Shown piece by piece: positions 51-14,849 of a stretch of 14,852 nt of DNA. Source of the stretch: Methanobacteriota archaeon (lineage in GTDB: Archaea > JAADCQ01 > Methanopyri > Methanopyrales > Methanopyraceae); assembly GCA_027064305.1 (NCBI GenBank), contig JAMOPY010000029.1, positions 1 to 14,852 on the forward strand. The letters are read 5' to 3'. The number at the start of each line of letters is the position of its first letter. Position 1 is the first letter of the stretch. Both the position numbers and the translations under genes were made by a program. The notes under the pieces are model-generated. The model had not been told where the DNA came from. It worked only from the letters and a program-made list of their open reading frames with translations, and did no database searches.

Positions 51-1685
51 ATGCCCTTCGACAGGGAGCGGCTGGAGGAGCTTCGATCGCTGGCGCGGGA
101 GGACTTCGATCGGGCGTGGAAGGAGGGGGCGAAGCTGGTTCGGAGGCCGGGGCTGGAGGATCGGTATCCGCGGCTCAGGGTGGAGGCGGGCGAGCCGCAC
201 CCGCTCTTTGAGACGATCCAGCGGCTGCGGGAGGCGTACCTGCGGGCGGGGTTCAGGGAGGTTGTGAACCCGGTGATCATCCCGGAGGAGGACGTGTACA
301 GGCAGTTCGGGCCGGAGGCGGCGGCCGTGCTGGACCGGTGCTTTTACCTGGCGGGCCTCCCGCGCCCGGACGTGGGGTTGGGCGAGGACAAGGTGGAGCG
401 GCTGGCGGAGGTGCTGGGTCGGGAGCCGTCGGAGGAGGAGGTGGAGCGGCTGCGGGAGACGCTGCACGAGTACAAGAAGGGCAGGCTGGACGGGGACGAG
501 CTGACGCACGCGATCGCGGAGGCGCTGGGCGTGGACGACGGGACGGCGGTGCGGGTGCTGGAGGAGGTGTTCCCGGAGTTTCGGAGGTTGCGGCCGGAGC
601 CGTTGGACCCGCCGCTGACGCTGCGGTCGCACATGACGGCGGGCTGGTTCATCACGCTCTCGGAGCTTCTGAAGCGGGAGGAGCCGCCGCTGAGGCTGTT
701 CTCGATCGATCGGTGCTTCCGGCGGGAGCAGCGGGAGGATGAGAGTCATCTGTACTCCTACTTCTCCGCCTCGTGCGTGGTGGTGGGAGACGACGTGACG
801 GTGGACACGGGGAAGGCGGTGGCGGAGGCGATCCTGCGGCAGTTCGGGTTCGAGGATTTCGAGTTCGTGCCGGACGAGAAGATGTCGAAGTACTACGTGC
901 CGGGCACGCAGACGGAGGTGTACGCGTACCATCCGGACCTGGAGGATTCGGTGGAGGACGAGGAGCTGGGCCCGGGCTGGGTGGAGATCGCCACGTTCGG
1001 GCTGTACTCGCCGGTCGCGCTGGCGGAGTACGGGATCGAGTACCCGGTGATGAACCTGGGGATCGGGGTCGAGCGGCTCTGCATGGTGCTGTACGGGGTC
1101 GAGGACGTGCGGGCGCTGGCGTACGTGGAGCACGAGCCGTGGGAGCCGTCGGACCTGGAGCTGGCGCGGATGATCGACTACGAGGTGAAGCCGGCGACGT
1201 CGTTCGGGGAGCGGTTGGTGCGGGCGGTCGTGCGCGGGCTGCGGGAGCACGCGGACGAGGAGGGTCCGGTGGAGGTGACGCTGTTCGAGGGGGAGTTCGG
1301 CGGGCTGGAGGTGACCGTGCGGGCGGTGGAGCGGGAGGAGGGGGAGCCGCTGGCGGGGCCGGCGGCGTTCAACCGGGTGTACGTGCGGGACGGGAGCGTG
1401 TACGCGGTCCCGCCGGAGGGCGAGTTCGGGCGGGAGATCCGGGAGGAGGGGGTGGACGCGGGCGTCTCGTTCGACGAGGGGCTCGCGGCGCGGCTGGCCT
1501 ACGAGGTGGAGGAGCTGCTGGCGTCGGGGGGCGGTGAGACGACGGTCCGGGCGAGGAAGGTCTCGCGTCCCTCGCAGGTGAACATCCGGCTGTCCGATCG
1601 GCTGCTGCGGTACGTCACGGAGAGGGGGAGGGAGATCGAGGTGAAGGGCCCGGTGTTCGTGACCCTGGAGGCGGAGGTCGGGTGA
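51..1685 (+). CDS. sepS: O-phosphoseryl-tRNA(Cys) synthetase (SepRS)
   Basis: 544 aa class II aaRS with SepRS-typical motifs: HPLFETIQRLREAYL, QFGPEAAAVLDRCFYLAGLPRPDVG, TLRSHMTAGWF, FSIDRCFRREQREDESHL, WVEIATFGLYSP, VMNLGIGVERL. GGGGGAG RBS upstream of the ATG. Confidence 0.96.
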   Translation: MPFDRERLEELRSLAREDFDRAWKEGAKLVRRPGLEDRYPRLRVEAGEPHPLFETIQRLREAYLRAGFREVVNPVIIPEEDVYRQFGPEAAAVLDRCFYLAGLPRPDVGLGEDKVERLAEVLGREPSEEEVERLRETLHEYKKGRLDGDELTHAIAEALGVDDGTAVRVLEEVFPEFRRLRPEPLDPPLTLRSHMTAGWFITLSELLKREEPPLRLFSIDRCFRREQREDESHLYSYFSASCVVVGDDVTVDTGKAVAEAILRQFGFEDFEFVPDEKMSKYYVPGTQTEVYAYHPDLEDSVEDEELGPGWVEIATFGLYSPVALAEYGIEYPVMNLGIGVERLCMVLYGVEDVRALAYVEHEPWEPSDLELARMIDYEVKPATSFGERLVRAVVRGLREHADEEGPVEVTLFEGEFGGLEVTVRAVEREEGEPLAGPAAFNRVYVRDGSVYAVPPEGEFGREIREEGVDAGVSFDEGLAARLAYEVEELLASGGGETTVRARKVSRPSQVNIRLSDRLLRYVTERGREIEVKGPVFVTLEAEVG

Positions 1686-1742
1686 CTGGGTCCCTCCTCA
1701 TCGTCCGGCTCGGCAATCCGCCGTACTCCTCATCCCCGACCG
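1674..1742 (-). ncRNA. Putative archaeal C/D box 2'-O-methylation guide sRNA
   Basis: Minus strand reads GGGG-AUGAGGA (C, 1733-1727)-GUACGGCGGAUUG (13 nt guide)-CCGA (D', 1713-1710)-GCCGGACG-AUGAGGA (C', 1701-1695)-GGGACCCAGUCAC (13 nt guide)-CCGA (D, 1681-1678)-CCUCC. Box order, symmetrical spacing and the short terminal stem fit archaeal C/D sRNAs. The boxes are one-mismatch variants of RUGAUGA and CUGA. Ends are approximate. Confidence 0.8.
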
Positions 1743-1761: not shown

Positions 1762-1776
1762 TTCAACGTTATAATC
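1762..1776. promoter_or_regulatory. Archaeal TATA box (palindromic TTATAA), possibly bidirectional
   Basis: TTATAA at 1769-1774 is the AT-rich element of the largest intergenic gap. It lies about 36 nt upstream of the GTG at 1811 (GGAGGGGG RBS at 1796-1803) and about 27 nt upstream of the predicted sRNA 5' end on the other strand. Confidence 0.65.
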
Positions 1777-1810: not shown

Positions 1811-2572
1811 GTGACCGACGCCGGGGTGCGACCGTTCCACGTGTACGTGCGGATCGCGGTGGAGCTGTTCCTGGCCTCCACGATCCTCGGGATCGCCCTA
1901 TACTTGGTCTTCCCGGAGATTCCGAAGCTGATCGTCGCCGCCGTGAAGCACCGGGTGGAGCGGTTGGCGGCCGTGCTCCCGTTCGGAAGGGAGCGGATCA
2001 CCGTCGCGATCCTGATCTGGAACTCGGTGGTCGTGCTGCTGTGCGTGTTCGGCGGCGTCCTGGCCCTCCTGATCGACCGGACGATCCTGTCGATCGTCCC
2101 CTCCCGACTGCGGCACCGGTTGGAACGGCCCCCGTACGCGGACGCCCTGATCCGACTGGCCCGGTGGATGGGATACGAGGTGAGCCGATACCGGGAGGCG
2201 GACGTGATTCTGACCCTCCGGTTGGGCCCCCTCGTGGTGCCCTTCATCAACGGGGTGGCGGCGGGCTCCTTCTTCGCCTCGGTGGCGGACAAGTTCGGCG
2301 TGCACCGGATGATCAAGCTGCTCCTGCTTCCCCACGGGTTGATCGAGCTCCCGACGGTGATCGCGGCCGCGGCGCTGGGACTGTACCTGGCGGACCACCT
2401 CATCCACCGCGAGCGGGTGCACCGGCGGTGGCCCGACGCGAGCCTTCGGCCCCCGAGCTGGGTGGTGCGCAGCGTCTCCTACTGCCTCTTCGCGCTGACC
2501 GCGGCCGCGTACCTGGAGGTGCACGTGTCGCCCAAGCTGCTGGCGGGGAGCGCCGGATGCGTCTTACGGTGA
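1811..2572 (+). CDS. SpoIIM/DUF95-family integral membrane protein
   Basis: Several hydrophobic segments. Motifs ILIWN, FING, LLLPHGLIELP..IAAAALG and C-terminal AAYLEVHVSP match the stage II sporulation protein M family. Strong RBS. Confidence 0.8.
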   Translation: MTDAGVRPFHVYVRIAVELFLASTILGIALYLVFPEIPKLIVAAVKHRVERLAAVLPFGRERITVAILIWNSVVVLLCVFGGVLALLIDRTILSIVPSRLRHRLERPPYADALIRLARWMGYEVSRYREADVILTLRLGPLVVPFINGVAAGSFFASVADKFGVHRMIKLLLLPHGLIELPTVIAAAALGLYLADHLIHRERVHRRWPDASLRPPSWVVRSVSYCLFALTAAAYLEVHVSPKLLAGSAGCVLR

Positions 2573-5289: not shown

Positions 5290-6060
5290 GTGCAGGGGGC
5301 CCTCAACGACTTCGTGCTCGTGGACGAGACGGACGGGGAGCGGGTCCCGGAGGGGGAGAAACCCGCGTTCGCCCGCTGGGCCTGCGACCGCCGGGCGGGC
5401 GTGGGCGCCGACGGCGTGATCTTCGTCCGCGTGCGGTCGTCCGAGGTGGAGATGAGGATCTTCAACCGGGACGGGTCCGAGGCCGAGTTCTGCGGGAACG
5501 CGGCCCGGTGCGCGGCCCGGTACGCGACGGACGTGCGCGGCGAGAACGTTAAGGCTCTAAGAACGTTATCGGGCCGTCACGCCGTGGAGGTCCTCGACGA
5601 CCGGGTGCGGGTGGAGGTGCCCGGCGCCCGGGTGAGGGACGCGACGGAGCTGGGCTTCGAGGTCGACGCCGGCGTGCCCCACCTCGTCCGCCTCACCGAG
5701 CGGGACCCCGTGCGCGAGGCCCGCCGACTCACCCGGGAGGCCCGCGAGATCCAGCGCCGGTACGCGGAGCGCGGCGGCGTGAACGTGACCTTCGCGGCCC
5801 CGGCCGGGGACGCCCTGCGCGTGCGTACGTACGAGCGTGGGGTCGGCTGGACCCCCGCGTGCGGCTCCGGCGTGGTCGCGGCCGCGCTCGTGTACGCCGA
5901 CCTGTTCGGGGCGGACGGGCCCGTGCGGGTGAGCACCGCGGGCGGCCCGCTGAAGGTCCTGCTCGACGACGGCCCGCTCCTGGAGGGACCGGCGGAGATC
6001 GTGTACGAGGGTCGGGTAAAGGGGGCGCCCTGGCGTGAGGATCCTGATCACCAACGATGA
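5290..6060 (+). CDS. dapF: Diaminopimelate epimerase (start uncertain; homology extends upstream to about 5278)
   Basis: FWKVQGALNDF N-terminal motif, GVGADG, IFNRDGSEAEFCGNAARC and RTYERGVGWTPACGSG (both catalytic Cys), C-terminal LEGPAEIVYEG. Confidence 0.9.
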   Translation: MQGALNDFVLVDETDGERVPEGEKPAFARWACDRRAGVGADGVIFVRVRSSEVEMRIFNRDGSEAEFCGNAARCAARYATDVRGENVKALRTLSGRHAVEVLDDRVRVEVPGARVRDATELGFEVDAGVPHLVRLTERDPVREARRLTREAREIQRRYAERGGVNVTFAAPAGDALRVRTYERGVGWTPACGSGVVAAALVYADLFGADGPVRVSTAGGPLKVLLDDGPLLEGPAEIVYEGRVKGAPWREDPDHQR

Positions 6061-6826
6061 CGGGATCGCCTCGCCAGGGCTGCGGGAGGCCATCCGCGTC
6101 TGCAAGGAGTTCGGCGAGGTGACGGTGGTCGCCCCGGCGACCCAGCAGAGCGGGGTGGGACGTAGCATCTCCCTGCTGGAGCCCGTGCGGGCGGAGGAGA
6201 TGCGGATCGAAGGGGTGGAGGCGCTGGCCATCTCCGGGACGCCGGCGGACGCCGTGCTGATCGGGGCCTTCTCCCTCATGGACGAGCCACCCAACCTCGT
6301 CGTCTCCGGGATCAACCTGGGGGAGAACCTCAGCGCCGACATCACCACGTCCGGCACGGTCGGCGCGGCGCTGGAGGCGTACGGTAACGGCATCCCCGCC
6401 ATCGCCATCTCCCAGGAGGTCCGGAGCCCCAGGGCCCGGATGGACAACAACCCGGACGACGAGGAGGTGGACTTCACCCTGGCCGCCCGGGTGCTTCGAG
6501 GCCTGCTGCGCGTCCTCTCCGACGTCGACTGGCGGGGCGTCCTGAACGTGAACGTGCCGAGCCCGGAGCGGTGGAACGGCCGCGTGACCGCCGCCCCGCT
6601 GGCCTTCACCATGTACCGGCCCAGGATCGAGGAGCGGCACGATCCCCGCGGTCGCCGGTACTACTGGATCGACGGCGACGTGATCGAGGACCCGCCCAAG
6701 GGCACGGACCTCTACGAGCTGCGGCGCGGGTCGATCGTGATCACCCCGCTGACCGTCGACATCACCGGCGACCTGAAGTCGGCGGAAAAGGTTATCAAAG
6801 CGCTGAGCCGCGAGCTCCGGGGATAA
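6035..6826 (+). CDS. surE: 5'/3'-nucleotidase SurE
   Basis: ILITNDDGI, VVAPATQQSGVG, GTPADAV, VVSGINLGEN, SGTVGAA, LNVNVP, DPRGRRYYWI. Confidence 0.96.
   Translation: MRILITNDDGIASPGLREAIRVCKEFGEVTVVAPATQQSGVGRSISLLEPVRAEEMRIEGVEALAISGTPADAVLIGAFSLMDEPPNLVVSGINLGENLSADITTSGTVGAALEAYGNGIPAIAISQEVRSPRARMDNNPDDEEVDFTLAARVLRGLLRVLSDVDWRGVLNVNVPSPERWNGRVTAAPLAFTMYRPRIEERHDPRGRRYYWIDGDVIEDPPKGTDLYELRRGSIVITPLTVDITGDLKSAEKVIKALSRELRG
6785..6799 (+). promoter_or_regulatory. Putative BRE+TATA promoter embedded in the surE 3' end
   Basis: GAAAAG-G-TTATCAAA, an AT-rich island about 32-45 nt upstream of the GTG at 6831, which lacks a strong RBS. Confidence 0.45.
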
Positions 6827-6830
6827 TCCG

Positions 6831-7220
6831 GTGAACCTCCTCCCGATCCTGGCGCAACCGACCGTCCTCGTCGCCCTCTCCGGGTGCGTCACGGCCGTCA
6901 TCGTCGCCGCGATCGCGGCCCGGGTTTACTCCCGGAAGCTGCGCGTCCGGGAGCTCGAGCTGAAGGTGGAGCGGGAGAAGGTGGAGCTGGTCCGGGCCGA
7001 CCTGGAGCGTCGCCGGCTGCTGGATTTACTCTTCTACCTGCCCGAGGACACCCGGCTCCTCAACCGCGTGAGCGCGATCCGCTCCCTCCTCACGAGCCTC
7101 GCGGAAAAGTATATGGACGTCGAAACGCGCATGACGCGGCTGGAGCTTGAGGCCGAGCTCAAGCGGTTGGAGGAGCTCTCCAAGAGCCTTGAAAAGCTGG
7201 AGGAGGAAGGTGGTGAGTGA
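6831..7220 (+). CDS. Hypothetical protein, N-terminal transmembrane helix + coiled coil
   Basis: Hydrophobic N-terminus (VLVALSGCVTAVIVAAIAA) followed by E/L/R-rich heptads. Sits exactly between surE and the next gene with typical codon usage. Confidence 0.75.
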   Translation: MNLLPILAQPTVLVALSGCVTAVIVAAIAARVYSRKLRVRELELKVEREKVELVRADLERRRLLDLLFYLPEDTRLLNRVSAIRSLLTSLAEKYMDVETRMTRLELEAELKRLEELSKSLEKLEEEGGE

Positions 7221-7609
7221 TGACCATCGCCGAGTTCATCGCGGTCGGCGTGATCACGCTCGCCGTGATCATCGTCGTGGCCCTGATCGTGCGAAGCCGC
7301 ACGAGCACCGAGTCCGGGGAGTCCTCCACCTTGCTGGGTAACAAGCTGTCCGGGAAGCTGTCCCTGTCCAGCTCCGACCTCATCTCCAAGCGCGTGGACG
7401 AGATGATCGAGCGGCGCGTGGAGGAGCTCATCGACAGCTGGGGACTGGCCACGACCGAGGACCTGGAGCAGGTGGAGCGCCGGGTGGACGCGCTCGACCG
7501 ACGGCTGGGGGAGCTGGAGCAGCGGTTCAACGAGTTCAGGAACGACATCCGAAGGAAGATCGAGCGGCTGGAGGCTCGGCTCCGAGAGCTCTCCGAGTCC
7601 GAGGAGTGA
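7217..7609 (+). CDS. Hypothetical protein, N-terminal transmembrane helix + coiled coil
   Basis: TM segment FIAVGVITLAVIIVVALIV, Ser-rich linker, long heptad region (LATTEDLEQVERRVDALDRRL...). Start GTG 7217 or ATG 7220 after a GGTGGTGA RBS. Overlaps both neighbours. Confidence 0.78.
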   Translation: MMTIAEFIAVGVITLAVIIVVALIVRSRTSTESGESSTLLGNKLSGKLSLSSSDLISKRVDEMIERRVEELIDSWGLATTEDLEQVERRVDALDRRLGELEQRFNEFRNDIRRKIERLEARLRELSESEE

Positions 7610-8358
7610 CGACCCGGGGTCCGACCTTGGAGCGGCCCATCGCCTCCTCCGTCCTCAGGAAAGGTTACGAGGTGCTTAACGACCGGGCCCGGAGCGACGT
7701 CATCGTCGTCGGGGCCGGCCCGGCCGGTCTCACCTGCGCCTACGAGCTGGCCCGGAACGACGTGAAGGTGACCGTCATCGAGCGGCAGCTGTACGTCGGC
7801 GGCGGGATGACCGGCGGCGGGATGTTCCTGCCCGCGGGCGTCGTGATGGAGGAGGACGCCGAGCTCCTGGAGGAGCTGGGGGTCGAGCTGGAACCCGCCG
7901 AGGAGGGCCTGCTCGCGTTCAACCCCGTGGAGGCGGCGATCAAGCTCGCCCACGCGGCCGTGGAGGCGGGCGCCGTCATCCTCGTGGGGCTGGAGGTGGA
8001 GGACGTGATCGAGCGTCAGGGCCGCGTCGAGGGCGTCGTCGTCAACTGGACGGCCGCCAAGCGCGCCGGCATGCACGTGGACCCGCTGCCGATGGAGGCC
8101 AAGTTCACCGTGGACGCCACGGGCCACGAGGCCTCGGTCTGCCGGTGCGCGGGCGTGGAGGTGAAGGGAGAGGGACCGATGTGGGCGGAGCGCGGCGAGG
8201 AGCTCGTGGAGAAGCACACCCGAGAGGTCAAGCCGGGCCTCTTCGTCGCCGGCATGGCCGCCTCCGCGGTGCGCGGCGCCTACCGGATGGGACCCATCTT
8301 CGGCGGCATGCTCCGCTCCGGCAGGAAGGCGGCCCGGGAGATCCTGGAGCGCCTCTAA
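7606..8358 (+). CDS. thi4: Sulfide-dependent adenosine diphosphate thiazole synthase (Thi4, non-Cys type)
   Basis: DVIVVGAGPAGL, GGGMTGGG, VVVNWT, MHVDPL (His in place of the suicide Cys), DATGHEA, PGLFVAGM, RMGPIFGGMLRSGRKAA. Confidence 0.93.
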   Translation: MTTRGPTLERPIASSVLRKGYEVLNDRARSDVIVVGAGPAGLTCAYELARNDVKVTVIERQLYVGGGMTGGGMFLPAGVVMEEDAELLEELGVELEPAEEGLLAFNPVEAAIKLAHAAVEAGAVILVGLEVEDVIERQGRVEGVVVNWTAAKRAGMHVDPLPMEAKFTVDATGHEASVCRCAGVEVKGEGPMWAERGEELVEKHTREVKPGLFVAGMAASAVRGAYRMGPIFGGMLRSGRKAAREILERL

Positions 8359-9017
8359 CGCCCTCCCAGGAGCTCCAACGCCTCCCTCACCTCGCGAACC
8401 GTCATCTGCCCCGGGGCCGCCGCGCCCCGGACCGCGGCGTACGTGGCGTACCCGCCCACGAGCAGGCTCACCACCCGCGTGTACCGGGCCCGCTCGCCCA
8501 TCGCGAAGCCGATCGTGGGCGCGTCGGCGGTCTCCACCATCTCCAGCACCCGCAGGGCCTCCCCGTGATCCCGCGCCGTGGGGACCACCTTGGCCACGTC
8601 CCCCAGCTCCGCGCACCGGTCCCGCAGCTCGAACAGCTCCTTCTTCTCCGGAGTACCCTCGAAGTCGTGGTGCGACACGATCGTGCGGCACGCGGGCCGG
8701 ATCACGTCCTCCTCGGCCACGTCCAGCTCCACGTCCACGAAGTCGGCCTCCTCCGAGACCCGCTCCAGGATCTCCAACCGGCGCTCCTCGTCGCCCTCGA
8801 ACCGCCCGCCCTCCTCCGCCCGGCGCAGCGTGGCGATCACGCGCTCGTACCGCGAGCACTCCCGAACGGCCCTCAGGGCCGTCCTCAGGTCCAGGTTCTC
8901 CAGGTAGTCCAGCCGCACCTCCAGCGCGTCCGCGCCCTGCTCCACGGCCTCGACGGCCAGCTCGACCATGTCCTCCACGGTGCGCCCGGTCAGCGTGGCG
9001 ATGATGAGGCCGGGCAA
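8355..9017 (-). CDS. aroD: 3-dehydroquinate dehydratase type I
   Basis: ADALEVRLDYL, IATLRRAEEGG, VDVEL, VSHHDFEGTP, DVAKVV (Schiff-base Lys), FAMGE...TR, APGQ. Confidence 0.93.
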   Translation of the reverse strand: MPGLIIATLTGRTVEDMVELAVEAVEQGADALEVRLDYLENLDLRTALRAVRECSRYERVIATLRRAEEGGRFEGDEERRLEILERVSEEADFVDVELDVAEEDVIRPACRTIVSHHDFEGTPEKKELFELRDRCAELGDVAKVVPTARDHGEALRVLEMVETADAPTIGFAMGERARYTRVVSLLVGGYATYAAVRGAAAPGQMTVREVREALELLGGR

Positions 9018-9020
9018 GGT

Positions 9021-9464
9021 CTACTCCTCCAGCGCCTCCTTGATGCGATCCAGGATGATCTCGGCGATGCGCCGATCCGCCCCGATCGGCTCCGTGTAGA
9101 CGATCTCCGCGTCCACGTCCACGGGCTCGTACTCGCGGTGATGATCGTGGTGATGATGGTGCCCGTGATCGTGATCGTGCCCGTGATCCTCCTCCCAGTC
9201 CGGCTCCAGGCCCAGCATCCTCGGGATGTCCCGCTTGGTGTGCACCCCGTGGGCCAGGAACACCGGCACGACCACGATCCGATCCGCCCCCGACTCGGCC
9301 GCCCGCTTCACGGCCTCCTGGATGGACGGCTCCGAGAACTCCATGAACCCGACCTCCACGGCCTCGAAGTCGCCCATCTCCTCCACGTACTCGGCGAGCT
9401 TCTCCACCACCTCGCGGTTGTACGGGAGGCGGCTGCCATGCCCCACGAGCACGACGGCTACCAT
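9021..9464 (-). CDS. cbiX: Short class II chelatase CbiX-S (sirohydrochlorin Co/Ni chelatase, CfbA-like)
   Basis: LVGHGSRLP, VGFMEFSEP, VVPVFLAHGVHTKRDIP, internal His-rich loop, EPIGAD. Confidence 0.93.
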   Translation of the reverse strand: MVAVVLVGHGSRLPYNREVVEKLAEYVEEMGDFEAVEVGFMEFSEPSIQEAVKRAAESGADRIVVVPVFLAHGVHTKRDIPRMLGLEPDWEEDHGHDHDHGHHHHHDHHREYEPVDVDAEIVYTEPIGADRRIAEIILDRIKEALEE

Positions 9465-9467
9465 GTA

Positions 9468-10202
9468 TCACAACTCCCCCAGTAGCGTGTTAACGACCAC
9501 CAGCACGGCCAGGATGCCCCTATATTCGTCTATCTCCCGCAGCTCCTCGGACAGCTCCAGCTGCAGCCCCTGCACCCGCTTACCGTCGCAGTGATACTCC
9601 AGGATGTCCCCGCCGCAGAACTCCTGCTCGAACCCCACGTCGAACCCGCACTCCTCCAACCGCTCCACCACCTTCGCGACGAGCTCACCCCTCGCGGCCT
9701 CGCCGCCCAGCGCCCCCACGTCCACCTCCGGCCGGATGGGGTCGGACTCCATCCCGTGCAGGTCCACGATGAACCGGATCCCGTGCTCCTCGATCAGCTC
9801 CGAGATCCGGCGCCGGAAGGGCGTGTCCCGCGTCCACTCCCGGTTGTAATCGGCCGGTCGATCCTCCCCGGGCAGGCGCGACCGCCGGCTGACCGTCGCG
9901 ATGAGCGCGTGACAGCCGGCGATCCGCGCGACCCACCACGCGATCTCCCCGGTGAACACGTCCGCCCCGGGCCCCTGCGCGTGCGGGGCCGTGAGCAGGA
10001 TCGGGCGCGCCCCGCGGACCTCCACGTACCCGCGCAGCCGCACCTCCGAGCCCACCCGCTCGCCGTCGACCGACAGCCCCGGCACGCCCCTCAGGGCGCG
10101 CCGGAGCCGCTCCGGAGGGACGTCCAGCCGCTCGGACAGCTCCCGAACGTCCGAGATCCCCTCCCGGAGAATCAGCTCCACGGCCCGGCTCCTCAGGGGC
10201 AA
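9468..10202 (-). CDS. N-terminal HTH-like segment fused to an N-formylglutamate amidohydrolase-like Zn hydrolase domain
   Basis: N-terminus DVRELSERLDVPPERLRRAL is HTH-like. Then LLTAPHA, ADYNRE, IVDLHGM, VDVG and LQLELSEELR resemble FGase/Zn-carboxypeptidase-fold motifs. Confidence 0.7.
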   Translation of the reverse strand: MPLRSRAVELILREGISDVRELSERLDVPPERLRRALRGVPGLSVDGERVGSEVRLRGYVEVRGARPILLTAPHAQGPGADVFTGEIAWWVARIAGCHALIATVSRRSRLPGEDRPADYNREWTRDTPFRRRISELIEEHGIRFIVDLHGMESDPIRPEVDVGALGGEAARGELVAKVVERLEECGFDVGFEQEFCGGDILEYHCDGKRVQGLQLELSEELREIDEYRGILAVLVVVNTLLGEL

Positions 10203-10204
10203 GC

Positions 10205-10930
10205 TCAGAGCCCCAGGATCCTCTTCGCGTTCTCCTCCAGGATCAGATCGTGGTCCACGTCGGCCGCCCGCACCACCTCCAGCTGCGCGGCCGGGCTACC
10301 GTACGGGGAGTCCGAGCCGAAGAGGATGCGCTCCTCCCCCACCCGCTCCGCCGCGCGCTCGATCACCTCCGGATCCTTCACCAGGGAGACCTCCAGGTAC
10401 GCGTTCTCGTGCTCCTCCGCGACCCGGATCGCCGCGTCGTACCCCTGCTCCTTACCCATGTGCGCCATGATGATGGGCGTGTCCGGCACCTCCTCCGCCA
10501 GCCGACCCACCCGGACGGGATCCGAGAAGGGCTCACCCCGGGCCGTGTGAACGATCACCGGCACGCTCAGGTCCGCCGCTTTCTCCACCACCCGAACCGC
10601 CTCCGGGTCGTCCGGGTAGAAGGACTGACTGCGCGGGTGCAGCTTGACCCCCCGCAGCCCCAGCTCGCGCACGCACCGCTCCACCTCCTCCACCGCCGCC
10701 TCCTCGCAGTTCGGGTCCACCCGGCAGAACCCGATCAGCTCCTCGTGCTCCGAGCACGCCTGCGCGATCCGATCGTTCGCCTTCGAGAAGCACACGCCCG
10801 GATCGACGTCGTTGAAGGGGAACACGACCGCCCGGTCGATCCCGTTGACCCGCATCTTCGCGAGCAGCATCTCCACGGTCTGGACCGTGCCGTCCACGTC
10901 CTCCCCTAGGTGATTGTGAACGTCGATCAC
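10205..10930 (-). CDS. Metal-dependent TIM-barrel hydrolase (amidohydrolase_2 family)
   Basis: Only the C-terminal 241 aa of ORF 10205..12229 looks real, starting at GTG 10930 (GTGA overlap with the upstream stop). Motifs IDVHNHLG, GVKLHP, IVHTA, MAHMG, ILFGSDSPY. Confidence 0.9.
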   Translation of the reverse strand: MIDVHNHLGEDVDGTVQTVEMLLAKMRVNGIDRAVVFPFNDVDPGVCFSKANDRIAQACSEHEELIGFCRVDPNCEEAAVEEVERCVRELGLRGVKLHPRSQSFYPDDPEAVRVVEKAADLSVPVIVHTARGEPFSDPVRVGRLAEEVPDTPIIMAHMGKEQGYDAAIRVAEEHENAYLEVSLVKDPEVIERAAERVGEERILFGSDSPYGSPAAQLEVVRAADVDHDLILEENAKRILGL

Positions 10931-12405
10931 CACCGGCTCACGATCCCCCTGCTCACGTGCTCGAGCTGGACGATCTGATCCCCCTCTTTGAGCGGTACCC
11001 TCACGCCCCGGGGCAGCCGGCCCAGCACGCCCTCCCGCTCGGCCACGACCACGGGCTGATCGACGCCCACCGTGATCCGGGCCCGCACGATGTCCTTGAC
11101 GAACCCCAGCCGGTCCCGCCGGTACTCGTAGTCCGCGACCGGGGTCAGGCGCCCCACCAGCCGGGTCCCCTCCGGGATCCTGACCCGCTTCCCGTTGATC
11201 TCCAGGACGCGGTCCGAGCCGAGCCGCACGACGACCTCCTTCCCCTCGTACCGCGCCAGCTCCTCGAACTTCCGCTCCACCTTCAGGGACGGCCGCTCCT
11301 CGAGCTCGGTCTTCCCGTTGCGCAGCTGGGAGCGGAAGGAGAGCCCGAACTCGTCGACGATCTCCTCCACGAGCCCGATCAGCTCCAGGAGCGCCTCCCG
11401 GGCCTCCACGATCCCGTCCTCTCGGACGAACTCCGCCTCGATCCCGGACCGGATCGCCCGCTCCCGGTTCTCCATGTGGTGCTCGTCCGGATGGCTCATC
11501 CGACCCTCCTTCTCGTACAGGTAGAACCCGTGCACGCCCAACCCCGCGATGAGGAGGATCACGTCGTGCAGGTAGTCCAGGGACTTCTGGTTGTCGATCG
11601 CCCGCACCTCCACCCGGTTCCGCTCCGGGCTCTCGTTCTCGTCCCCCGTCACGTTCGAGGCCGGCCCGCGCGGGGTGATGTCCACCAACCGCTTGCCGTT
11701 CGGGTGCGCCACCACCCGCTCCTCGAACTCCGTGTCCTTGCGCAGCCGGAGCTTGTACCGGAGTCGACCGTAGTACTGCGTCTGGGTCAGGGTGGGGCGC
11801 TTGGGGGGCCGCTCCAGCCGCGCGTGCCGGTTGGGCTTGAGCACCCGGCTCTTCAGCAGCCGACAGCTGGCCGCGAGGTTCCGCCCCCCGCAGCAGTAGG
11901 GCGTGTTGGCCGTGGCCGCGATGAGCGTGGGCAGGTGGTACCACAGGTAGTTGTACACCGCGCAGACCTGGGACGGCGTCATGTACGGCTTGTCCTTGAA
12001 CCGGATGGCCAGGTTCACGTGCGTCCCGTTGATCGGCAGGGGATCGCTCTCCACCGGGTGCATGCTCTCCAGCAGGACCAGGAGTCTCATCCGGCTGGCC
12101 GCCTTCCGGATCAGCTCCCGACCCACCTTGCAGGCCTCCAGCGCCTCCTCCGGCGGCACGGGCTGGGTGATGTACTCGATCTGCGCCGGGTTCGGCTCCG
12201 GGTCCAGGCCCAGCACGTACTCCCAGCACGTGTCGAGCAGCGAGTGGTCCGACTTCAGCAGCTCCGCCGCCTCCATGATCACGTCGTCGGCGGCCCGCAC
12301 GAGGGAACCGCGCCGGCTGATGAGGAACAGCTCCTCCTCGATCCCCACGCGCACCTCGATCCGCTCCAGGAACCGGCGCAGCCGCCTCCGGCGGATGAGC
12401 GGCAC
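10927..12405 (-). CDS. Glutamate-cysteine ligase family 2 (YbdK-like) carboxylate-amine ligase with an extra C-terminal domain
   Basis: VGIEEELFLI (ExE metal motif), AQIEYIT, SMHP, NGTHVNL, LIAATANTPY, ASCR, DITPR, RVEVRAIDNQ and ENRERAIRSG match the GCS2/YbdK motif order. Confidence 0.82.
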   Translation of the reverse strand: MPLIRRRRLRRFLERIEVRVGIEEELFLISRRGSLVRAADDVIMEAAELLKSDHSLLDTCWEYVLGLDPEPNPAQIEYITQPVPPEEALEACKVGRELIRKAASRMRLLVLLESMHPVESDPLPINGTHVNLAIRFKDKPYMTPSQVCAVYNYLWYHLPTLIAATANTPYCCGGRNLAASCRLLKSRVLKPNRHARLERPPKRPTLTQTQYYGRLRYKLRLRKDTEFEERVVAHPNGKRLVDITPRGPASNVTGDENESPERNRVEVRAIDNQKSLDYLHDVILLIAGLGVHGFYLYEKEGRMSHPDEHHMENRERAIRSGIEAEFVREDGIVEAREALLELIGLVEEIVDEFGLSFRSQLRNGKTELEERPSLKVERKFEELARYEGKEVVVRLGSDRVLEINGKRVRIPEGTRLVGRLTPVADYEYRRDRLGFVKDIVRARITVGVDQPVVVAEREGVLGRLPRGVRVPLKEGDQIVQLEHVSRGIVSRW

Positions 12406-12411
12406 GCGGTC

Positions 12412-13680
12412 CTACCCCCGGAGCAGCTCGTCCAGGGTCCGCTGCACCACCCTGCCGCCGCCCGTCCGCGGTCCCTCCTCCCCGCCCTCCTCACCGTCTT
12501 CCTCCTCGCCCACGAGGATCTCCCCGTACCGACCGCCCCCGCCCGGCCGGATCCGAACCGACCCCTCCCGGAAGGCCCGCAGGAGCCTCGCGACCCGCTC
12601 GTCCACCTCCGCCACCTCCTCCGGCGGCGCCTCGACCAGCACGTCGATCTCGCTCCCGAACCGCCGGACGAGGGCGTTCCACACGGCGTTCACCTTCTTC
12701 GCCGTGACCGTCGAGAGGCCCAGCGCCTTCGCGATCAGCTCCGACAGCGGGACGATCCGCAGGTACGGGGGCCGATGCTTCGGGTGCCTCGGCTCGTCCA
12801 GGTCCGCCAGCTCGAGCACCCGGTCCCGCACGCCCTTCTTGATCCGTCCACCGCACTCGGGGCACCGCCAGTTCAGCCGCTCCGCCTCCTCCAGCGTGAA
12901 CTGGCGCTTGCACCGGGCGCACGCCGTCCGGTTGTACTTGCCCAGCTCCGGGACCAGGCCCACGTTCAGGACCACGCGACCGCCCGGCTTCCGCCGGATC
13001 GCCGCCTTGATCGCGTCGTAGGAGGGCTCCTCCAGCTCCAGCCGGACGAACTCGCGCCCGAGCCGGTGCGGGTAGGGGGAGTGCGCGTCGGAGCAGGTGA
13101 GGAACGTGTACCGGTGCAGCTCCGAGATCCGGTCCGCGTAGTCGGAGTCCGCGGAGAGGCCCAGCTCCACGAAGTCGACCCGGTCCACGGCGTCGCCGTA
13201 GCACTCGGACAGGGAGTCGTACTCCTTGAACACGCTGGTCCAGGGGACGAACGCGTGCGCCGGGCCGACCAGGCACTCCCGCTCCTTCAGCAGGTCCACC
13301 AGCTCGGCCCCGGAGAGGTCGACCCTCGGCCGACCCTCCTCCTCGATGTCCGGGGAATGAGGCCTCAGCTCCTCGTACAGGTCCTCGGCCGCGTCCAGCG
13401 AGGGCAGGATCACGAGGTGGTGCACCCGGTCCCGATCCTCGATCTCGACCGTGGGGACGAACCGGACGCCCGTGCGCGGGTCCCGGAGCAGCCCGTACTC
13501 GTCCCGCTCCAGCTCGCGCCGCACGTGCCGCCGCCACCGGGGATGGAGGATGTCCCCCGTGCCGACGAGGTCCAGCCCCTTCCTCCTCGCCCCGCGGGCG
13601 AGCTCCCGGATCACCATCCGAGGGGAGGTGCCCCCGGAGTACTTGGAGTGCAGGTGGAGGTCGGCGTCGTAGGTGGGCAC
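12412..13680 (-). CDS. endoQ: Endonuclease Q (PHP domain + Zn ribbon + C-terminal helical domain; TIGR00375-like)
   Basis: DADLHLHSKYS, KGLDLVGTGD, RVHHLV, GPAHAFVPW, ELGLSAD, SDAHSP..HRLGRE, GKYNRTACARC...CPECGG.IKKGV, FGSEIDVL, PGGGGRYG. Confidence 0.9.
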   Translation of the reverse strand: MPTYDADLHLHSKYSGGTSPRMVIRELARGARRKGLDLVGTGDILHPRWRRHVRRELERDEYGLLRDPRTGVRFVPTVEIEDRDRVHHLVILPSLDAAEDLYEELRPHSPDIEEEGRPRVDLSGAELVDLLKERECLVGPAHAFVPWTSVFKEYDSLSECYGDAVDRVDFVELGLSADSDYADRISELHRYTFLTCSDAHSPYPHRLGREFVRLELEEPSYDAIKAAIRRKPGGRVVLNVGLVPELGKYNRTACARCKRQFTLEEAERLNWRCPECGGRIKKGVRDRVLELADLDEPRHPKHRPPYLRIVPLSELIAKALGLSTVTAKKVNAVWNALVRRFGSEIDVLVEAPPEEVAEVDERVARLLRAFREGSVRIRPGGGGRYGEILVGEEEDGEEGGEEGPRTGGGRVVQRTLDELLRG

Positions 13681-13701
13681 CCTACTCCCCCTGGCGGGCT
13701 T

Positions 13702-14196
13702 TTAGACCGGGAGCAGCTCGCGCAGTTTCTCCTCCGTCTCCGGGACGATCTCGAAGGCGATCCAGCCGGCGAGCACGATGATCAGGAGGCCGATGAGCTG
13801 GCCCACGATGTCGTGGGCCACCCGGAACCCCACGTGCCAGACGCTCATCATGTAGAACATGAACGCGAGCCGGAGCACGTTCCCCGCGGTCATGATCGCG
13901 GTCGAGACGGCGATGGCCAGGAGCTTGCGGGTCAGCGAGGGGCCCGGGGTCGCGAGGATGAGACCGACGAAGAGGGCGATCGCGGGCCACACGACGCAGC
14001 CCTTCACGATCACGGCGTTGATCCCGCCCACCTGGAACGTGTACCCCGTCTTCGGGAGGTGCACGCCCAGCGCGTTGAGCAGCGAGTGCACCCAGTGGGC
14101 GGTGCGGTACTGCAGGGGCTCCGTGTCGATCCCGGAGTACACGAACAGGGAGACGGCGACGGCGGCGGTCAGGTACCGCCAGTCCACCCGTCTCAC
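13702..14196 (-). CDS. Archaeosortase/exosortase-family membrane transpeptidase
   Basis: Small multi-TM protein with the family's Cys-Arg-His triad in order: IVKGC, GNVLR, AHDIVG. Also LILATP....RKL. GTGA overlap with the upstream gene. Confidence 0.8.
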   Translation of the reverse strand: MRRVDWRYLTAAVAVSLFVYSGIDTEPLQYRTAHWVHSLLNALGVHLPKTGYTFQVGGINAVIVKGCVVWPAIALFVGLILATPGPSLTRKLLAIAVSTAIMTAGNVLRLAFMFYMMSVWHVGFRVAHDIVGQLIGLLIIVLAGWIAFEIVPETEEKLRELLPV

Positions 14197-14849
14197 CCCG
14201 CGGGCCGGAGGTACCGGGCGATCTCGAACAGCCCGTGGGCGCCGAACGTCTGGATCGTCCAGGCGGCGGCGAACATCATCAGCAGGTCGTCCCCCTTGTG
14301 GTACCGCTCGACCCCCGTCACGTTGGACGCGAGGTCCGCGGCCGTGACCACCGCCCCCATGACGAGCCCGCCCCGCCAGGATCCGGTGATGAGCAGGCCC
14401 AGCAGGAGCGCCGCCAGGAACTCGAAGATCGTGCCGATCGGGCTGATGCCCTCCTCCACATGCCGGACCCGGAGTCCCTCGAGCGAGATCACCGGGTTCA
14501 CGGACCTGGGGACGAACTGGGCGAGCCCGCCCGCGCCGTCGACCCCCTTGGAGACGAGGAACGCGAGGCAGGCGTTCGTCAGCCCGAGGACGGGGGCGAG
14601 CCCGAACAGCATCAGGGCGGCCAGGAGGATCGAGTTCCAGGGGTCGTACCGCTCCCTACGCTCGTAGAGCTTCGGGGCCAGCGGGGGCCGGATGAACGCC
14701 GCGAAAACGGTGAGCCCGAAGATGGTGGCGGGGAGGACGCCCGACATCGCCTGGCCGAGCAGGACCGCCGCGGCCGCCCCTCCCACCGCCGAGTGCAGGG
14801 TCGAGGCGACCGGATCGTCGGAGAGCTTGCGTCGGAGCGCCTCCGCCAC
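14193..14849 (-). CDS. Hypothetical multi-pass membrane protein (start may lie beyond the window edge)
   Basis: Several hydrophobic helices and typical codon usage. Its stop overlaps the archaeosortase start. The frame is open to the window end. Confidence 0.7.
   Translation of the reverse strand: MAEALRRKLSDDPVASTLHSAVGGAAAAVLLGQAMSGVLPATIFGLTVFAAFIRPPLAPKLYERRERYDPWNSILLAALMLFGLAPVLGLTNACLAFLVSKGVDGAGGLAQFVPRSVNPVISLEGLRVRHVEEGISPIGTIFEFLAALLLGLLITGSWRGGLVMGAVVTAADLASNVTGVERYHKGDDLLMMFAAAWTIQTFGAHGLFEIARYLRPAG

Follow-up and report, generated by a model that had tools for sequence, protein, structure and literature searches.

A very probable ortholog of the Methanopyrus kandleri box C/D guide RNA sR33 overlaps the sepS stop codon in an uncultured Methanopyrus genome

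The stretch of DNA analysed here (the window, 14,852 nt in all) carries near its start sepS, the gene for O-phosphoserine--tRNA ligase (SepRS), and directly downstream of its stop codon lies a short duplicated element. On direct reading, CTCCTCATC occurs twice on the plus strand (1694-1702 and 1726-1734), and on the minus strand the duplication resolves into the symmetrical arrangement proposed in the earlier note i.e. C box, 13-nt guide, D' box, 8-nt spacer, C' box, 13-nt guide and D box from 1733 to 1678, with AUGAGGA/13 nt/CCGA present twice (Table 1). The G.A/A.G dinucleotides of the boxes are intact. Archaeal C/D guides are usually 12 nt long and are flanked by the consensus boxes RUGAUGA and CUGA, and C/D sRNAs are stable transcripts of ~50-70 nt that are often circular in hyperthermophiles. 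Both guides at this locus are 13 nt, one above the usual length, which agrees with membership of the class, as do the terminal C and D boxes and the internal D' and C' boxes, whose paired positions co-vary (see below).

The ends of the predicted sRNA follow those published for M. kandleri sR33, which extends 6 nt beyond the C box on the 5' side and 3 nt beyond the D box on the 3' side. The short terminal stem described in the earlier note is possible: the flanks GGUCGGGG and CCUCCGCC can pair over 4 bp and then 3 bp, with one C.C mismatch interrupting the helix. The fold of 1744-1670 was not more stable than those of shuffled sequences (z -0.46), which is neutral evidence because a weak fold is expected for the C/D class. 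A TTATAAT/ATTATAA element, a possible archaeal TATA box to judge from its sequence, precedes the C box by 36-42 nt on the minus strand and also lies upstream of a plus-strand ORF (1811-2572); the 'TA' at its alignment column is kept in all six genomes of the genus. A relaxed scan for further C/D sRNAs in the window brought out no second locus, a weak match at 14359-14437 (plus strand; D' 10, D 6) being judged a chance resemblance, and no tRNA genes were found in the window.

Table 1. Position of the predicted guide RNA, its elements and neighbouring features (numbering of the window)
Feature	Position	Strand	Remarks
sepS, O-phosphoserine--tRNA ligase (SepRS)	51..1685	+	TIGR00470 at 697.4 bits, cut-off 380.65
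Predicted mature C/D box sRNA, ~65 nt	1675..1739	-	ends modelled on the published M. kandleri sR33 ends
Possible terminal stem, 5' half GGUCGGGG	1734..1741	-	pairs with 1677-1670
C box AUGAGGA	1727..1733	-	consensus RUGAUGA; position 5 is G here
D' guide GUACGGCGGAUUG, 13 nt	1714..1726	-	predicted to pair with 23S AAUCCGCCGUA; N+5 is the C equivalent to E. coli C2313
D' box CCGA	1710..1713	-	from sequence and ortholog alignment
D'-C' spacer GCCGGACG, 8-nt variable loop	1702..1709	-	length differs among six genomes
C' box AUGAGGA	1695..1701	-	from sequence and ortholog alignment
D guide GGGACCCAGUCAC, 13 nt	1682..1694	-	predicted to pair with 23S UGACUGGGUCCC; N+5 is the C equivalent to E. coli C2347
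D box CCGA	1678..1681	-	complement falls in the final two sepS codons
Possible terminal stem, 3' half CCUCCGCC, inside sepS	1670..1677	-	pairs with 1741-1734
AT-rich TTATAAT/ATTATAA element	1769..1775	.	possible archaeal TATA box

The predicted sRNA overlaps the final 11 nt of sepS on the opposite strand. The final two codons of sepS span the D box, and the TGA stop codon (1683-1685) falls opposite the D guide, within its complement and 2-4 nt away from the D box, so that these bases belong to both genes as the earlier note had stated. Its further remark that the sRNA is perfectly antisense to the sepS 3' end is true but trivial: the complementarity is perfect because the two genes overlap, and nothing here shows that the antisense relation has a function of its own. 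The overlap is read as gene packing.

A loose dual-box regular expression gave 33 matches in the 1.21-Mb genome, this locus among them. In 20 simulated genomes (first-order Markov) the mean was 0.15 matches, with none in 18 genomes and one and two in the others i.e. the dual-box layout is ~200 times commoner than in the simulated genomes and exceeds chance. Guide spacings of 12/12 and 13/12 account for 14 and 12 of the 33 matches, respectively, and 13/13 is found at this locus alone. At least 9 contiguous pairs with rRNA were found for 44 of the 66 guides in these matches, compared with 191 of 1320 shuffled guides. The genome also encodes the proteins with which such RNAs assemble, with a fibrillarin gene at C40:5685-6362, a Nop5 gene at C40:6571-7254 and L7Ae-family genes on contigs C9 and C25.

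A search with Rfam over the whole window gave no match at gathering thresholds. The best sub-threshold matches, sR30 (RF01134; 16.1 bits, E 0.081) and sR36 (RF01124; 14.6 bits, E 0.22), share the C-guide-D'-C'-guide-D architecture and align over their whole length to 1676-1737 (minus strand), but their guides are unrelated to those found here and the scores lie far under the gathering values of 38 and 55, and we therefore rejected membership of either family. The description of the sRNA as hidden, used in the earlier note, is apt only in that no Rfam family reaches its threshold; an ortholog has already been published (see below).

The sRNA gene lies at the same site, antisense to the sepS 3' end, in 6/6 genomes of the Methanopyrus genus, with boxes and guides kept in every one. 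In these genomes 12 of the 13 positions of the D' guide and 11 of the 13 positions of the D guide are invariant; the variation is confined to the outermost positions, the pairing cores being constant, and the guides are invariant between species whose SepRS proteins are merely 75% identical. The D'-C' spacer, by comparison, ranges from 5 to 14 nt. Six of the seven C-box positions are invariant, with G, C or U at position 5; the D' box is CCGA in four genomes and CGGA in two, and the D box is CCGA in three and CUGA in three. All six orthologs keep the GA of both terminal boxes, C and D. The population variants listed in metagenome contigs (3 runs) fall at 17 positions in 1535-1665 and at one in 1666-1744, and the sole variant listed within the sRNA, 1704 T>C, is in the D'-C' spacer.

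The variable box positions are those that face each other at 3b:3n of the kink-turn. The pair formed by position 5 of the C box and position 2 of the D box is G:C in three genomes, U:U in two and C:U in one, and its C'/D' counterpart is G:C in four, C:G in one and U:G in one. The genus alignment shows real compensatory change at 3b:3n of both kink-turns (U:U, G:C, C:G). At this locus neither kink-turn follows the consensus, position 5 being G instead of U and position 2 being C instead of U, with G:C in place of U:U after the G.A pairs. This box habit is seen genome-wide: G:C is the commonest state among the guide RNA candidates of this genome (21 of 55 C/D pairs), whose G+C content is 70%. 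Compared with the standard box C/D kink-turn (Ashraf, Huang & Lilley 2017, PMC5689011; McPhee et al. 2014, PMC4382518), the tandem G.A/A.G pairs are present, as is G:C at 4b:4n, whereas 3b:3n, usually U:U, is G:C. McPhee et al. state that a Watson-Crick pair at 3b:3n blocks folding in metal ions alone. G:C at this position would still fit protein-induced folding, and the variants could serve as natural material for the question of how L7Ae handles a Watson-Crick pair at very high temperature.

Guide matches were measured as contiguous Watson-Crick runs including N+5; a genome-wide guide scan that tolerated G-U pairs (12/13 positions) was too lax to inform and was superseded by this measure. 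The 23S gene of this genome was not found in the assembly (89% complete), and 23S targets were therefore checked on congeners only. With the 23S rRNA of the congeners G004 and G005, the D' guide forms 11 and the D guide 12 contiguous Watson-Crick pairs, N+5 included in each case. Both thus exceed the minimum used by Dennis et al. (2015, PMC4644070), which is 9 uninterrupted Watson-Crick pairs with rRNA or tRNA across N+5. Chance was gauged with shuffled guides: one trial in 1000 gave a run of 11 or more pairs, and 0 of 1000 gave 12 or more. The best contiguous runs of the two guides were only 7 and 5 with the genome's own 16S rRNA, and only 6 and 5 with its own 26 tRNAs, so that neither of these holds a target. 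Both target sites are present in 4/4 same-genus 23S genes found; they lie 34 nt apart, and in E. coli the equivalents of their predicted methylated nucleotides are C2313 and C2347. The earlier note had placed the targets in rRNA or tRNA and had given two inferred target strings. These strings were nearly right, but the actual 23S sites are AAAUCCGCCGUAG and CUGACUGGGUCCC, and the outermost guide positions are therefore unpaired.

A counterpart is known from M. kandleri. The copy in genome G002 is letter-identical to the published M. kandleri C/D box sRNA 33 (MKAsR33), for which Su et al. (2013 NAR, PMC3695527, Table S1) list 7100 RNA-seq reads, circularisation '+' and a D target at 23S-2545, PLEXY having given no D' target. 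The targets predicted for Mka sR33 by Dennis et al. (2015 BMC Genomics, PMC4644070, Additional file 1) are 23S C2617 and C2583 (alignment numbering); their separation of 34 nt matches that of the sites found here, and they agree with the E. coli mapping. The M. kandleri gene likewise runs antisense to the end of sepS, at the same genomic position, and its RNA shares the 13/13 spacing, both 23S targets and, at 13 of 13 positions each, the D and D' guides. It differs in its boxes and spacer: published sR33 has C box AUGAUGA, D box CUGA, D' box CGGA and a 6-nt spacer, whereas the present copy has AUGAGGA for C and C', CCGA for D and D', and a spacer of 8 nt. Expression and circularisation have been shown for M. 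kandleri sR33; the copy described here is a prediction from sequence.

Taken with the layout, the conservation and the 23S matches, this correspondence indicates, with a probability of roughly 0.93, that the minus strand at ~1739-1675 encodes an archaeal box C/D sRNA orthologous to M. kandleri sR33. If it works as other members of the family do, L7Ae would bind the C/D kink-turn and the C'/D' kink-loop, and Nop5 and fibrillarin would then assemble on the sRNA. Both 13-nt guides would pair with two stretches of nascent 23S domain V, 34 nt apart, and fibrillarin would 2'-O-methylate the nucleotide paired with guide position 5, counted upstream from D' and from D, i.e. the cytidines equivalent to C2313 and C2347, which are the predicted methylation sites. 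Each guide is predicted to cover one strand of a local 23S hairpin, and the double guide therefore probably also keeps this region open during folding. One 23S target contains UGA, and the copy of this UGA in the guide complement acts as the sepS stop codon. The interpretation in the earlier note is thus supported, all checks run of those that it proposed having come out in its favour. The sRNA is of a known type, the counterpart of a published RNA, and the assignment is correct but ordinary; its value lies mainly in annotation, as one guide RNA gene is placed in an uncultured high-G+C Methanopyrus genome in which the standard Rfam models find nothing.

A very unlikely alternative is that the sRNA acts mainly in cis on the 3' end of sepS mRNA, either by forming a duplex that changes stability or termination or by directing 2'-O-methylation of the mRNA itself, in which case the N+5 rule would place the methylated sites at C1686, directly after UGA, and C1718. 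The perfect complementarity and the retention of the stop-codon overlap in all six genomes are what this would require, and the possibility of such a role has been raised, without a test, for 3'-antisense C/D sRNAs of Pyrobaculum (Lui et al. 2018 NAR, PMC6009581). However, the guide cores are exactly as the 23S targets require, so that rRNA pairing alone accounts for their conservation, and the predicted RNA reaches only ~11 nt into the sepS ORF. The Pyrobaculum genes themselves are a close parallel: they likewise converge on a protein gene, with the D guide reaching into its 3' end, and ordinary targets in rRNA or tRNA are known for 40 of 47 such guides, just as the overlapping guide here keeps its rRNA target. 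The present case differs from the class, as described there, in its lineage (Methanopyrus) and in that the stop codon itself is in the guide complement.

It is conceivable, though very doubtful, that the conserved location of the stop codon opposite the D guide is more than packing and that the complex methylating 23S rRNA at CUGAC*UGGG also methylates sepS mRNA at GUGAC*UGGG, right after UGA. If so, such methylation could adjust either termination or how stable the mRNA is at its 3' end, and SepRS output would be coupled to the supply of rRNA-modifying complexes. A cis-antisense role is compatible with rRNA-guide function.

It is extremely unlikely that the locus is a decaying or inactive copy that no longer assembles an active methylation complex. 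Such a copy might be suspected from boxes (AUGAGGA, CCGA) that deviate from RUGAUGA and CUGA, from spacers that are both 13 rather than 12 nt and from the lack of an Rfam match at threshold. The box variants, however, are the same ones that dominate the other guide RNAs of this genome (the 21/55 G:C pairs above), most guides of the candidates, drawn from the 33 matches to the narrower regular expression, match rRNA (44/66), and box positions 5 and 2 change together. The 13/13 spacing is shared by the expressed M. kandleri ortholog, and guides have stayed invariant between the species with 75% identical SepRS.

The remaining reading, a chance resemblance or a sepS 3'-UTR or terminator element without guide function, would draw on the location of the locus at a gene end, where terminators occur, and on our estimate (not a computed value) that a 9-mer repeat within 32 nt is not rare, but it is refuted for practical purposes by the ~200-fold excess of the layout over simulated genomes, two independent long matches to neighbouring 23S sites and a conservation pattern that is that of a guide RNA, and the locus has no stable fold.

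The shared bases also leave a mark on the protein. Comparison of the orthologs indicates that the D-box variant sets the last residue of SepRS, CUGA giving Arg and CCGA giving Gly; this tie between the U/C variant of the D box and a C-terminal Arg or Gly is a small, clean case of mutual constraint between two genes.

The minus strand of the window carries a C/D box guide sRNA that is the ortholog of the published, expressed M. kandleri sR33, with the same two predicted 23S rRNA targets. The earlier note had read such an RNA here, antisense to the stop codon of sepS (the gene for O-phosphoserine--tRNA ligase, SepRS), and direct reading of both strands confirmed that it had described the box and guide layout and the overlap accurately. 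The duplicated CTCCTCATC lies on the plus strand at 1694-1702 and 1726-1734, again by direct reading, and the 8-nt flanks on either side of the sRNA could pair through 4 bp, one mismatch and 3 bp. The sepS TGA (1683-1685) falls within the complement of the D guide, and the last two sepS codons cover the D box. An AT-rich element may be the TATA box of the sRNA; its core, TTATAA, is palindromic.

Features of the sRNA locus and the overlapping gene
Feature	Position	Strand	Basis or remark
C box AUGAGGA	1733-1727	-	sequence reading
D' guide GUACGGCGGAUUG, 13 nt	1726-1714	-	sequence reading
D' box CCGA	1713-1710	-	sequence reading
D'-C' spacer, 8 nt	1709-1702	-	sequence reading
C' box AUGAGGA	1701-1695	-	sequence reading
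D guide GGGACCCAGUCAC, 13 nt	1694-1682	-	sequence reading
D box CCGA	1681-1678	-	sequence reading
sepS ORF	51..1685	+	TIGR00470, 697 bits vs cut-off 381
AT-rich element	1769-1775		36-42 nt upstream of C box; 'TA' kept in 6/6 genomes

The search of rRNA and tRNA with the guide complements that the earlier note proposed gave matches in 23S rRNA. The 16S gene of the source genome is located on contig C40, although no 23S gene was found in this 89% complete assembly, and the 23S targets were checked on the genes of those congeners, four out of five, that have one. In all four, the D' guide forms 11 contiguous pairs with AAUCCGCCGUA and the D guide 12 with UGACUGGGUCCC, at sites 34 nt apart; with shuffled guides, runs of at least 11 pairs arose in 1/1000 trials and runs of at least 12 in 0/1000. 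The best runs of the two guides were 7 and 5 pairs against the source genome's 16S and 6 and 5 against its 26 tRNAs. By the N+5 rule (the nucleotide paired with the fifth guide position upstream of the box), the predicted methylated nucleotides are two cytidines, which a MAFFT alignment with E. coli K-12 rrlH maps to E. coli C2313 and C2347. As read from the sequence, each target stretch forms one side of a local hairpin in 23S domain V (GGCGG...CCGCC and CUGGGUCCC...GGGACCCAG); these hairpins are probably helices H84 and H86.

The published counterpart is 'C/D box sRNA 33' in Table S1 of Su et al. 2013 (63 nt; coverage 7100, circularisation '+'; PMC3695527), which is letter-identical to the copy in G002, one of the five congeners; both transcript and circular form have been shown by others for the ortholog. 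That entry gives 23S_rRNA-2545 as the D-box target and none for D'. Additional file 1 of Dennis et al. 2015 (PMC4644070) assigns Mka sR33 the targets 23S C2617 and C2583 in its own alignment numbering, i.e. two cytidines 34 nt apart, as in our mapping; the offsets of that numbering (G2520 = E. coli G2251; C2880 = E. coli C2606) agree with C2313 and C2347. The overlap with a gene 3' end is likewise an arrangement already described: Lui et al. 2018 (PMC6009581) treat antisense overlap of protein-gene 3' ends as a regular C/D sRNA category in Pyrobaculum, where 40/47 such guides still have an rRNA or tRNA target, and mention methylation of the mRNA or antisense regulation as possibilities. A cis-antisense role on sepS, which would coexist with guide function without conflict, is improbable here; no observation calls for it.

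The locus was found by DNA search in all six genomes of the genus, always antisense to the sepS 3' end and with boxes and guides kept, which answers the earlier note's proposal to check box conservation among relatives. Twelve of 13 D' guide positions and 11 of 13 D guide positions are invariant, the varying ones being the outermost, while the D'-C' spacer varies in sequence and length (5 to 14 nt). Most box differences fall at C/C' position 5 and D/D' position 2, and the changes are coupled. For C/D, G000 (the source genome), G004 and G005 have G:C, G001 and G002 have U:U, and G003 has C:U; for C'/D', four genomes have G:C, G001 has C:G and G002 has U:G. The aligned orthologs thus vary in the way that is classical for guide RNAs. 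Even where SepRS has diverged most among the fetched loci (75% protein identity), both guide cores are unchanged. In metagenome contigs from three runs, 17 variant positions are listed for 1535-1665 and a single one for 1666-1744, at spacer position 1704; for a more distant relative, two long contigs align over 1666-1734 only. That the sRNA is an inactive copy is less probable still; the co-variation, the invariant guides and an expressed ortholog with identical guide spacing speak against it.

A loose dual-box regex found 33 layouts, this locus among them, in the source assembly (1.21 Mb, 50 contigs, roughly 70% G+C; the window is contig C29), compared with a mean of 0.15 in 20 first-order Markov simulations of the genome (0 in 18/20; 1 and 2 in the remaining two). 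Against the genome's own 16S or a congener's 23S, 44 of the 66 guides had at least 9 contiguous Watson-Crick pairs including N+5, vs 191/1320 shuffled guides. The source genome therefore has a set of real guide RNAs with this box type, this locus included. A chance resemblance or terminator is the least credible explanation, given this excess, the ortholog alignment, the 23S pairing runs relative to shuffled guides and a fold analysis of the region that speaks against it.

Since fibrillarin, Nop5 and L7Ae genes are all present in the source genome, we consider the standard reading, a double guide methylating 23S rRNA, the most likely (confidence 0.93). The earlier note was correct in both its observation and its guide-RNA reading. 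Anatomy, complementarity, conservation with co-variation and partner genes were all observed in the present analysis. On this reading, L7Ae would occupy the two kink motifs and Nop5 and fibrillarin would assemble on the sRNA; once the two guides had paired with nascent 23S rRNA, both predicted cytidines would be 2'-O-methylated. The interaction probably also helps local 23S folding, as Dennis et al. 2015 argue for double guides generally (PMC4644070).

Of side interest are the kink-turn variant and the constraint common to the D box and the last sepS codon. Both kink motifs have G:C at 3b:3n (C-box position 5 with D-box position 2, and likewise C'/D'), whereas box C/D kink-turns usually have U:U (Ashraf et al. 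2017). According to McPhee et al. 2014, kink-turns with a Watson-Crick pair at 3b:3n do not fold when only metal ions are present; G:C would be compatible with protein-induced folding. The variant is a habit of the genome and not of this locus alone: among the 55 matches that a wider regex gave in G000 the C/D state was most often G:C (21), followed by U:U (13), C:C (11), A:G (5), C:G (2) and others (3), and in G002 the 26 layouts parsed from the first 30 of 69 pattern matches gave U:U 8, G:C 5 and others 13. In the 33-layout set, U at position 5 accompanies U at position 2 (Fisher p 1.4e-5 for C/D, 2.8e-3 for C'/D'). Because the D box lies within the last sepS codons, its variant is tied to the last SepRS residue: CUGA with Arg (AGG) in G001, G002 and G003, CCGA with Gly (GGG or GGC) in G000, G004 and G005.

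Among the C/D sRNA candidates of the source genome, for example C17:33026 (-), C30:34029 (+) and C36:27217 (+), the two 3b:3n positions are tightly coupled. Two overlapping regex matches with common boxes on the C12 minus strand (17183 and 17214, reverse-complement coordinates) look like a tandem or three-guide C/D arrangement, in which the C' and D of one would double as the C and D' of the next. A C/D sRNA candidate with consensus boxes at C40:12833 (+) follows the 16S gene (C40:11209-12725) at a distance of about 100 nt, on the contig that also holds the fibrillarin and Nop5 genes (C40:5685-7254).

In the window, the ORF at 1811-2572 (+), downstream of the sRNA and divergent from its gene with the AT-rich element between them, matched Pfam SpoIIM (PF01944, 58.8 bits) and no NCBIfam model. 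The long ORFs 7159-9471 (-), 10957-14667 (+) and 5729-6901 (-) had no Pfam match at E 1e-5, and at 70% G+C some of them may be spurious, overlapping frames; the frame of 1236 aa lies partly opposite an ORF with an amidohydrolase domain (10205-12229, -).
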